Shown one piece after another: positions 28,754 through 30,160 of a stretch of 32,000 bases of DNA (its first letter is position 1; every line of letters begins with the position of its first letter). Below the pieces are notes generated by a model. The model ran no database searches, was not told the DNA's origin, and was given only the letters and a program-made list of their open reading frames with translations. The stretch is from Thermodesulfobacteriota bacterium. GTDB lineage: Bacteria; Desulfobacterota; WTBG01; JAGOGO01. The position numbers and the translations under genes were made by a program. The stretch spans positions 1,185,622 through 1,217,621 of the forward strand of contig CP113000.1 of the NCBI GenBank assembly GCA_026625185.1, written 5' to 3'.

Positions 28754-29083
28754 TTAAGTTTTTGGAGAACATACAACTGAACCACCTGACTTTCCATGCG
28801 ATTCCACCGCACAACAACCCGAAGATTTATTACGACTCAACGTGGCGCTGACGAGTGCATGAGCGCAACCTACTCCAGGGCGAACATTAATCGCCTCTAC
28901 GGGACAGTTTGTGGCACAAGCTCCGCATTCCATGCAGGCATCTCGGCTCTTGATCAAAGCCTTACCATCGTTCAAGCTCCATACGGCATGCGGGCAAACC
29001 GAAAGACACATGCCGCAACCAATACATTTTTCCTCATCTAACGTCAGAGTAACAACGTATTTGAGATAAATCAATTGCCCCAT
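28754..29083 (-). CDS. hgcB: Mercury-methylation ferredoxin HgcB (2x[4Fe-4S])
   Basis: CIGCGMCLSVCP and the diagnostic CMECGACATNCP are present, along with a conserved Cys in PGVGCA and a vicinal CC (SGCCAV) near the C-terminus. The junction reads hgcA TGA-GGAG-9 nt-ATG. Confidence 0.85.
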   Translation of the reverse strand: MGQLIYLKYVVTLTLDEEKCIGCGMCLSVCPHAVWSLNDGKALIKSRDACMECGACATNCPVEAINVRPGVGCAHALVSATLSRNKSSGCCAVESHGKSGGSVVCSPKT

Positions 29084-29095
29084 AACTTGAACTCC

Positions 29096-30160
29096 TCATA
29101 CAATGAAGTGTGATCCAATCCATATACTCAACCCTATAACGCCTGCTCCAATTTCGAGGGGTAACGCCCAGCGTATTTCCTTTTTTACCCCGGAGAGAGA
29201 GGTGTAGGTCGAGGCACCAGTGAAATTCATCCCCAAATAAGCTGAAAGCGCTGGAATTAGAAATATCCAGCTGAGCATTTCAATATGTTCGCCCTTTGAA
29301 ACCATGTTATCCCATCGAAATAAGAGTAAAAGCGTTACAGTAATGATGCCCATACTCATGCCTTTTAAGGAAAAAGCTCGGCCTGGAAGCCAAGGTAGCA
29401 ATAAAGGAGTGAAAACTGTGCCGGAAAGAACGGCTGCCAAAAAAATCATAATGGTAAAAATGCCATGATTAAATGCGCTTACCAAAAACCCTCCTGATCC
29501 CCCCATCCCTCCGATAAGAAACATAAGACTCAGAGCGATAATAATGGCCGATTTGGGAAAAGTCACAAGCTCCACGGGTATTAACACTGCCCGCTCCCAA
29601 ATCGTAAAAGATTTGCGCCGCATCTCTGAAGTTGCTTTTAGTCCAGCCTCTATAAAGGCAGGAAGATCTTCTGCTTTAATAGGTCCATACGTTACCTTAA
29701 AACCAGAGAGTTCTTTGACTCGGTGAGCTGCTACTCCAGGGGCAGCCAGTTGAGGTAAAATCAATTGCCGATGAGATACAACCTGGGGCAACCTGGTTGA
29801 TTCTATACGATTAACAAGTTCTGTTGTACCGAAGGTTCCAGCCCCGGCTGCACACCATACATTAATCCCATTGGTGTCCAAAACCAAAATCCATACATTC
29901 TTACTGGGAAGCGCCTGTCGAAGCTTGTCAAAGCTCATTTTATAATTAGCCGTAACCAAAACGGGAGAATGCTGATCAGGATTACCCAAAGCGTATAAGC
30001 CTGGGTCAACGGTATAATGCATCCGCCCTACAGCACATCGGGCTTTGAAAGTTCCCACATGATCAGCCCAGTTCAGTAAGGTGGATACTTGCGGAACCTC
30101 TCCTGCCGGAGTCTGAACCGAACCAACAACAAAGGGTTGGTTGAAACCAGGAAAACCCAA
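29096..30160 (-). CDS. hgcA: Mercury-methylation corrinoid protein HgcA
   Basis: TPAGEVPQV, VLVTANYKMSFD, VLDTNGINVWCAAG(A)GTFGT (cap helix with Cys103), ILPQLAAPGV and LPWLPGRAFSLKG are present. The C-terminal half has five predicted TM helices. The start is TTG. Confidence 0.88.
   Translation of the reverse strand: MGFPGFNQPFVVGSVQTPAGEVPQVSTLLNWADHVGTFKARCAVGRMHYTVDPGLYALGNPDQHSPVLVTANYKMSFDKLRQALPSKNVWILVLDTNGINVWCAAGAGTFGTTELVNRIESTRLPQVVSHRQLILPQLAAPGVAAHRVKELSGFKVTYGPIKAEDLPAFIEAGLKATSEMRRKSFTIWERAVLIPVELVTFPKSAIIIALSLMFLIGGMGGSGGFLVSAFNHGIFTIMIFLAAVLSGTVFTPLLLPWLPGRAFSLKGMSMGIITVTLLLLFRWDNMVSKGEHIEMLSWIFLIPALSAYLGMNFTGASTYTSLSGVKKEIRWALPLEIGAGVIGLSIWIGSHFIV

Follow-up and report, generated by a model that had tools for sequence, protein, structure and literature searches.

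The genes hgcA and hgcB are the only known genetic determinant of microbial methylmercury formation, and each organism found to carry them extends the list of potential methylators. The validated methylation pair of Pseudodesulfovibrio mercurii ND132 (DND132_1056/1057) encodes the corrinoid protein HgcA and the ferredoxin HgcB. CFeSP, the corrinoid iron-sulfur protein, has a large subunit that is related to HgcA through its corrinoid-binding domain, and there are fused HgcAB-like proteins, which do not methylate Hg in culture (PMC10087281). Haft and Gwadz described a selenoprotein form of HgcA (bioRxiv 10.1101/2022.07.06.499078), and a 2026 selenoproteome review (PMC13188914) lists HgcA (NF040863) as 'CU', a Cys-selenocysteine dipeptide. 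Here, we describe an hgcAB locus in a 32,000-nucleotide stretch of DNA, called the window below, from an uncultured Thermodesulfobacteriota bacterium of the sulfate-reducer type (contig CP113000.1, positions 1,185,622 to 1,217,621 of the forward strand; assembly GCA_026625185.1). Our reading, to which we give a probability of about 0.82, is that the window carries a chromosomal hgcAB operon on the minus strand, that HgcA is a 397-residue protein that contains selenocysteine (Sec) and starts at position 30289 of the window, and that the pair is predicted to confer HgcAB-type methylation. The coordinates of the features are collected in Table 1.

The identity of the two genes was evaluated with hidden Markov models (HMMs), by alignment and on a tree. 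It was found that the 354-residue open reading frame (ORF) scored 449.6 bits against the NCBIfam equivalog model for HgcA (NF040863; cutoff 275, E = 6e-135), with a match to profile positions 1 to 324 of 325, and that the 109-residue ORF scored 122.4 bits against the equivalog model for HgcB (NF040864; cutoff 99, E = 5e-36). Both proteins are orthologous to the ND132 proteins, whose sequences come from the supplementary material to Cooper et al. 2020 (PMC7305189), and the window HgcA nests within a large Desulfobacterota HgcA radiation. The first-pass annotation had recognized the tandem ORFs and named them hgcA and hgcB, without stating that they lie on the minus strand, and the HMM comparison that it had suggested agrees with these names. 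A search of 5.8 billion proteins returned one identical to the 354-residue HgcA (P0001), which is named 'MAG: mercury methylation corrinoid protein HgcA [Thermodesulfobacteriota bacterium]' at NCBI, is encoded on a 3.30-Mb contig and is also present in assembly GCA_029216095.1. The gene pair is therefore already publicly annotated, with hgcA in a probably truncated form, as discussed below.

An alternative identity for the 354-residue ORF is a CFeSP/CdhD-type corrinoid protein of the Wood-Ljungdahl pathway or a fused HgcAB-like paralogue, and the first-pass annotation had named both as outcomes that would overturn it. Pfam assigned generic domains only to the two proteins (PF03599, CdhD, to HgcA and Fer4 to HgcB), several database sources label HgcA relatives 'acetyl-CoA synthase subunit gamma', and a sequence search of the PDB found no solved HgcA, the best matches being CFeSP large subunits. 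However, the similarity to CFeSP is confined to about 120 residues (49 to 172), which match the last approximately 120 residues of CFeSP models, and the score against the CFeSP/CdhE gamma model NF003195 was 81.5 bits, far below the cutoff of 306. The ORF has a five-helix membrane domain instead of the N-terminal Fe-S or TIM-barrel domain of CFeSP. The score against the fused HgcAB-like model NF043039 was 202.2 bits, below the cutoff of 285, and hgcB is a separate ORF. Neither outcome was therefore observed; both identities were rejected on the HMM scores and the domain architecture, and we give them almost no chance of being right. The HMM, alignment and tree comparisons support the identification of a genuine hgcA-hgcB pair at the level of sequence.

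The predicted architecture of HgcA agrees with the layout proposed in the first-pass annotation, namely a corrinoid-binding domain with the cap-helix cysteine (GINVWC(103)AAG) followed by five membrane helices. The protein aligns with ND132 HgcA through the membrane domain, and an AlphaFold2 model places helices at residues 203-218, 225-253, 263-285, 289-314 and 322-353 of the short form, with predicted local distance difference test (pLDDT) values of 70 to 87 and with hydropathy peaks that agree. This model, run with a 28-sequence alignment (A1), averaged a pLDDT of 53.6; values for the corrinoid domain fell below 50 and made it unusable, so that the membrane helices alone were used.

The junction of the two genes on the minus strand reads TGA-GGAG-TTCAAGTT-ATG, and hgcB follows immediately downstream of hgcA after a gap of 12 nt that contains the GGAG. 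The coupling of the genes by this junction had been noted previously, but with a spacer of 9 nt between GGAG and ATG that proved to be 8 nt. The same order is widespread: hgcB is directly 3′ of hgcA in 76 of 82 loci (80 related genome loci and the source-organism contigs L001 and L002), and it is directly downstream in all four contigs of clade members (L083-L086), where it is truncated by the contig end in L084 and L086.

HgcB has the two CX2CX2CX3CP motifs of a dicluster ferredoxin, CIGCGMCLSVCP and CMECGACATNCP, and conforms to the high-stringency HgcB rule of C(M/I)ECGA with hgcA on the same contig. The residue at position 73, in GVGCA, is Cys; Sec occupies this position in a minority of HgcB proteins according to the Haft and Gwadz preprint (bioRxiv 10.1101/2022.07.06.499078). 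These hallmarks had all been listed in the first-pass annotation, together with a C-terminal Cys-Cys pair. The pair exists, but it is internal: Cys90-Cys91 is followed by an 18-residue tail (AVESHGKSGGSVVCSPKT) that holds one further Cys (Cys105) and ends in ...VVC105SPKT. The relatives' HgcB has SSCCC(V/T)IEP, followed after about 20 residues by a terminal CC, whereas the window has SSGCC...VVCSPKT and no terminal CC.

The 5′ boundary of hgcA is where our gene model departs from that of GenBank and of the first-pass annotation, both of which begin the gene at a TTG codon at 30160. This boundary is probably wrong; the frame continues upstream through an in-frame TGA to an ATG. The ATG opens 35 codons (MDETKKDTTEIRCGTLTESSRGNESVSRISSSTKL) that run up to the TGA, and seven in-frame codons (TKEKKAQ) separate the TGA from the TTG. 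There are two ways to read this arrangement. The TGA may be a Sec codon within a 397-codon hgcA, or it may be the real stop of a 35-codon upstream ORF (MDETKK...STKL), with the 354-residue HgcA made from the TTG. To examine the frame, we aligned the DNA that precedes hgcA in the window with that of relatives. It was found that 63 distinct relatives have a TGA exactly 106 (or 105) codons ahead of NVWC and that TAA or TAG is never used at this position, whereas a plain stop in the same codon and frame would be expected to be a mixture of TAA, TAG and TGA. The residue before the TGA is Cys in 53 of these 63, Leu in 4 (the clade of the window), Ser in 2, Thr in 2, Arg in 1 and Gly in 1, giving a consensus of C-U-P (U is Sec) with 10 non-Cys exceptions. 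The relatives that lack the TGA are fused in frame with the extension, where most of them have a nearby Cys-Cys (for example, L037, L047, L048 and L055), an arrangement that is hard to reconcile with an upstream ORF.

The coding potential of the extension points the same way. Upstream of the TGA, the frame is free of stops for at least 22 codons in 60 of 60 Sec-type forms, compared to 27% and 50% for the other two frames. The MDETKK start is conserved in the clade members L083-L086, and the Ala-Gln just before the annotated TTG is conserved as protein among relatives, a point against a real stop at the TGA. The codon aligned with the TTG is GCG, GAG or GGG, and thus no start codon, in 9 of 60 Sec-type relatives, and a Shine-Dalgarno sequence before this position is absent in most relatives. 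The 397-residue form matched the HgcA model NF040863 at residues 65-395 with 449 bits; the profile begins after the extension, and therefore this score is uninformative on the extension.

A conserved hairpin with a 5-bp stem and the family consensus GGCUC-AGKN-GAGCC was found just downstream of the TGA. Among 60 sequences, pairing held in 99.7% of cells, and compensatory changes were present in 4 of the 5 pairs; the observed values were reached in 0 of 500 shuffles, and sliding the 3′ arm reduced the pairing to 31-59%. The window and L083 share a compensatory U-A to C-G change in the stem. Several of the compensatory changes are not silent at the protein level (Ala/Ser to Ala/Gly or Val/Asn), which argues that the constraint acts on RNA rather than on protein. 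The hairpin is also tied to the TGA: of 60 Sec forms, 59 have the complete set of five pairs, compared to only 1 of 18 true non-TGA forms, and its loss together with the TGA counts against the real-stop explanation. One contig, L065 (CAZIQY010000054.1), in which a Cys lies two codons ahead of the conserved Ala-Gln, lacks a TGA at the Sec position and keeps all five pairs; it may represent a recent Sec-to-Cys conversion. As judged from these sequence patterns, the TGA and the hairpin are the signature of a Sec codon with a bacterial element of the selenocysteine insertion sequence (SECIS) type, and hgcA probably starts at the ATG, 129 bases upstream of the annotated start, and is read through the Sec codon. 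From the conservation of codon and hairpin, we infer that this organism decodes Sec.

Several observations weigh against this interpretation of the start. A usable AAGGAG lies 12 nt 5′ of the TTG in the window and in L083, unlike in most relatives, so that the short form could also be made, and the codon aligned with the TTG is TTG, GTG or ATG in 51 of the 60 Sec-type relatives. The annotated TTG falls in the loop of the hairpin, which on the real-stop explanation would be a coupling or regulatory structure with the start codon in its loop. The genes selA, selB, selC and selD and a tRNA-Sec were looked for and none was found in the 32-kb window. The window stem-loop alone is not significant, with a minimum free energy of -17 kcal/mol and a z-score of -0.49, and hence the support for it comes from the covariation of its apical part and not from folding energy. 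Searches of Rfam (at the gathering threshold for the whole window, and at E up to 10 for 30050..30750) yielded only two tRNAs and noise, with no family matching the hairpin. The extension changes faster than the core, with 11 of 44 codons differing between the window and L083, 7 of them non-synonymously. The Sec codon stands in a Leu-Sec-Thr context, so that the window and its clade lack the Cys-Sec (CU) dipeptide; for the 20 HgcA proteins that Haft and Gwadz examined, a 'perfectly conserved PCUGP' is reported. Finally, the short ND132 HgcA without a Sec arm was active in Escherichia coli lysates (PMC11588087), which suggests that the Sec arm is accessory and not catalytic. Set against the exclusive use of TGA, the missing start codons and Shine-Dalgarno sequences and the behaviour of the hairpin, these points leave a true stop at the TGA quite unlikely.

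The cap helix of HgcA has an unusual residue. The first-pass annotation had quoted GINVWCAAG, which is correct as far as it goes, but the quotation stopped before the last residue of the motif, which is NVWCAAGA and not the canonical NVWCAAGK. The Cys (103 in the short form, 146 in the long) aligns with Cys93 of ND132, and Ala (107 or 150) is in place of Lys97, where the family consensus is ...GK-G. Among the best 120 homologues, only five have this Ala (P0001, P0002, P0003, P0005 and P0008), and the 80 best genome loci all lack it. In the part of the Cooper 2020 alignment that was examined, the Ala variant occurs twice, compared to 905 occurrences of NVWCAAGKG. On a neighbour-joining tree built with a fast distance method and 200 bootstraps, the five homologues and M572 of Cooper grouped together in 197 of 200 replicates, nested among HgcA proteins with the lysine (K-type).

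The idea that the Lys-to-Ala change is unique to this clade was rejected, because the same change is present in 28 metagenome contigs, most of them only 29-58% identical to the window protein, and in the unrelated M5 of the Cooper 2020 alignment. Metagenome contigs (L087, L089, L097, L100 and L107) revealed a distant long-form lineage in which Lys is likewise replaced by Ala: HgcA-like proteins of about 535 residues, about 30% identical, with NVWCAAGAG and followed by HgcB-like genes ending in ...GCG. We also rejected, as stated, the idea that the Lys-to-Ala change, the altered HgcB tail and the missing Cys before Sec had a joint origin. K-type sister sequences likewise lack Cys before Sec (L-U in L115, N-U in L116 and S-U in L117), and therefore this loss predates the Lys-to-Ala change. 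In one of these sisters (L115, with P0006; GCA_019310535.1), a methylenetetrahydrofolate reductase gene (PF02219; L115:1805-2734) lies directly 5′ of hgcA, a link to C1 metabolism that is absent from the window.

These features raise the possibility that the pair is a diverged HgcAB-like system, non-methylating or of different specificity, in which the losses of Lys, of the Cys beside Sec and of the HgcB CCC and terminal CC have changed or abolished Hg(II) handling. Such a functional shift, with a reduced set of thiol or selenol ligands, is suggested by Ala for Lys97 in all clade members, by Leu-Sec for Cys-Sec, and by GCC for CCC (SSGCC instead of SSCCC) without a terminal CC in the window HgcB. 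If it had occurred, the consequence might be a different Hg(II) affinity or different kinetics, another metal(loid) substrate, or a loss of methylation. For its high-stringency class, the consensus hgc protocol (PMC10087281) accepts only sequences with one of six motifs that all end in GK, and it rates sequences outside these motifs as of unknown capability; NVWCAAGA does not match the high-stringency motif N[VI]WC[AS][AGS]GK and falls in the moderate, bitscore-based class only. No cultured organism carries the variant. These points count against methylation by the pair. A literature search for the Ala cap-helix variant found nothing. On the other side, the same protocol notes that some cap-helix substitutions retain activity, and an HMMER alignment shows Ala in CFeSP at the position equivalent to Lys97, so that the Lys is not required to hold the corrinoid. 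The change recurs in other HgcA-like lineages, and a residue other than Cys precedes Sec in K-type sisters as well. The pair is unfused and scores well above the equivalog cutoffs, and HgcA is clearly constrained elsewhere, being 91% identical to P0002 and having a mean column identity of 66% within the family. The pair retains the equivalent of HgcA Cys93, HgcB Cys73, all eight cluster cysteines and at least two cysteines of the tail. On balance, we consider a functional shift unlikely.

A predicted capacity for methylation is likely because no residue known to be essential is missing: Cys93 of HgcA, Cys73 of HgcB, the cluster cysteines and at least one Cys of the tail are all present. Methylation activity is nevertheless the least certain part of our reading, and the replacement of cap-helix Lys97 by Ala throughout the clade is the main reason for this uncertainty.

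In the scheme that we propose, the UGA would be decoded as Sec with the help of the hairpin just downstream, to give an HgcA in which a flexible N-terminal arm (Sec36 and Cys13) precedes a cytoplasmic corrinoid-binding domain and a membrane anchor of five helices. The cap-helix Cys146 (Cys103 of the short form) would ligate cobalt, as the lower ligand during methyl transfer, and HgcB, a ferredoxin with two [4Fe-4S] clusters, would reduce the HgcA corrinoid to Co(I), by analogy with ND132. The corrinoid would then be methylated, with S-adenosylmethionine as the donor according to PMC11588087; methyl-tetrahydrofolate was the donor proposed earlier. The methyl group would be transferred, again as in ND132, to Hg(II) held by thiolate or selenolate ligands, with methylmercury as the product. 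Candidate Hg(II) ligands are HgcB Cys73, the Cys-rich tail of HgcB and possibly the Sec arm of HgcA, which is plausibly an additional soft-metal ligand, following an argument of Haft and Gwadz.

Table 1. Features of the hgcAB locus (window coordinates; all on the minus strand).
Feature	Position	Description
hgcA, ORF-finder/GenBank form	29096..30160	354 residues; 'TTG start'
hgcA, proposed full length	29096..30289	397 codons and stop; ATG 30289..30287; stop TGA 29098..29096
N-terminal extension of HgcA	30161..30289	129 nt; MDETKKDTTEIRCGTLTESSRGNESVSRISSSTKL-U-TKEKKAQ; one Cys (Cys13) and putative Sec36
Putative Sec codon	30184..30182	In-frame TGA; codon 36; Leu-Sec context
Long-form sequence around putative Sec		...SSSTKL-U-TKEKKAQLGFPGF...
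Conserved hairpin	30154..30167	5 bp; GGCCC-AGUU-GGGUU; begins 14 nt after the TGA; annotated TTG (30160..30158) in loop
Extended predicted stem-loop	30144..30183	From GA of UGA to 39 nt downstream; folding of window RNA
Cap-helix motif NVWCAAGAG	29837..29863	Cys codon 29854..29852 (Cys103 short, Cys146 long); Ala codon 29842..29840
HgcA membrane domain	29102..29602	About residues 187-353 of short form; five long helices; AlphaFold2, hydropathy and ND132 alignment
hgcB ribosome-binding site	29092..29095	GGAG, directly 3′ of hgcA stop; as read from the sequence
hgcB	28754..29083	109 residues; dicluster ferredoxin
HgcB cluster cysteines		C20/23/26/30 and C50/53/56/60
HgcB Cys73	28867..28865	
HgcB Cys90-Cys91	28816..28811	
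HgcB Cys105	28771..28769	

The window is ordinary chromosome, with thiD, thiC, groES/EL, valS, nadC, coaX, divIVA, a DsrC/TusE-family gene, queC, queE, serA, purA and two tRNAs, and the G+C content near hgcAB (0.44-0.46) is the same as in the remainder of the window. The host was placed by means of ValS, encoded at 9874..12537 on the plus strand. All ValS relatives are uncultured; four clusters are 90-92% identical and others 70-78%, identity to everything named at the order level (Desulfobacterales or Deltaproteobacteria metagenome-assembled genomes, MAGs) is at most 64%, and there is no isolate among the top 120. The host therefore belongs to a deep, uncultured Thermodesulfobacteriota lineage. 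The 80 best HgcA matches among GTDB species representatives are likewise all MAGs, the closest being 71% identical, and almost all are labelled Desulfobacterota or 'Deltaproteobacteria' (Desulfobacterales, Syntrophales, Desulfomonilaceae and others).

The hgcAB genes are flanked by a nitroreductase gene downstream and a divergent Slp lipoprotein gene upstream. A nitroreductase, an Slp lipoprotein or a CoA-transferase was found beside hgcAB in none of 86 related loci, and the comparison of these neighbourhoods revealed no ArsR-type regulator or other conserved hgcAB partner. Terminator and promoter scans around the operon gave background levels only. Beyond the nitroreductase gene is a 75-residue hydrophobic ORF (27496..27723, minus strand) that has no Pfam match and resembles the C-terminal stub of a membrane transporter; it lies between the nitroreductase gene and a CoA-transferase fusion gene and may be a remnant of rearrangement. 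The fusion gene (25526..27388, plus strand) encodes 620 residues, with an acetyl-CoA hydrolase/CoA-transferase domain, which is butyryl-CoA:acetate CoA-transferase-like but below the cutoff, and a C-terminal GNAT/Pat-like acetyltransferase domain. On the other side, about 3.5-6 kb past hgcA and beyond the window end at 32000, a contig of the same organism (L001:1-2462) encodes an extracytoplasmic function (ECF) sigma factor with LTXXQ/'Metal_resist' (CpxP-like) periplasmic proteins on either side, so that a module for envelope or metal stress lies near hgcAB.

Elsewhere in the window, the DsrC/TusE-family sulfur-relay protein (17399..17743, minus strand; 68.5 bits, cutoff 53.5) is encoded just 3′ of queE-queC on the same strand, and there are no other dsr genes in the window. 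A HigA-like 'addiction module antidote' protein (PF21716, E = 1e-30; 3198..3512, minus strand) is encoded by a gene that overlaps by 4 nt an upstream ORF of 326 residues (3509..4489, minus strand), which has no family match apart from a sub-threshold Band_7 hit; a small HigB-type toxin would be the expected partner, which makes this ORF an unusual one. The otherwise gene-poor stretch 16207..17399 contains a cluster of short overlapping ORFs on both strands (16357..16712), and one translation from it (GINNKIRMIQRRAYGL) may represent transposase debris.

The findings add a corrected gene model (29096..30289), a small, uncultured clade whose cap helix is non-canonical, and quantitative covariation for an HgcA SECIS element, and they place the pair in another uncultured Thermodesulfobacteriota lineage; the understanding of how HgcAB works is unchanged by them. 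The locus is a concrete case in which public annotation truncates HgcA at a putative Sec codon. The hairpin covariation supports the selenoprotein model and gives a rule for finding others: a TGA 106 codons before NVWC, with GGCUC-NNNN-GAGCC 14 nt downstream. A high-stringency motif filter would discard the Ala clade, so that environmental hgcA counts may miss it; if the Ala variant is inactive, counts made with HMMs only would over-call it.

Compared with known systems, the locus most resembles that of ND132, with which it shares the two-gene order and the domain layout. The two HgcA proteins share 45% identity across 322 residues, the membrane domain among them, and both have NVWC with the Co-ligating Cys. 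HgcB is 55% identical over 84 residues and collinear, with Cys20/23/26/30, Cys50/53/56/60 and Cys73 at identical positions. The differences are that ND132 has Lys97 where the window has Ala, that ND132 HgcB has a terminal CC at 94-95 whereas the pair in the window is internal and followed by a tail with one Cys, and that ND132 is cultured whereas the window host is of an uncultured lineage. In addition, ND132 HgcA is reported by Haft and Gwadz to have a PCUGP arm, in contrast to the Leu-Sec arm of the window.

The selenoprotein HgcA that they describe resembles our gene model in being extended through one in-frame UGA just 5′ of the old predicted start, in length (363-400 residues reported, 397 here) and in the Cys-Cys of Sec-less homologues. 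It differs in having Cys-Sec followed by Gly or Pro, whereas the window has Leu-Sec followed by Thr, and the parts of the preprint that were consulted make no mention of the 5-bp hairpin or of its covariation. The CFeSP large subunit (AcsC/CdhE; PDB 2H9A, 2YCL and 4DJD) has a homologous corrinoid-binding Rossmann domain (E = 1e-10, residues 50-171) with a cap helix over the corrin, but Thr stands at the position of the ligating Cys of HgcA, and the subunit lacks a membrane domain and carries a TIM barrel and an N-terminal Fe-S domain. The fused HgcAB-like proteins (for example, in Pyrococcus furiosus) have the cap helix, membrane domain and ferredoxin motifs in common with the window pair; they are single polypeptides, whereas in the window a stop codon and 12 nt lie between the two ORFs.

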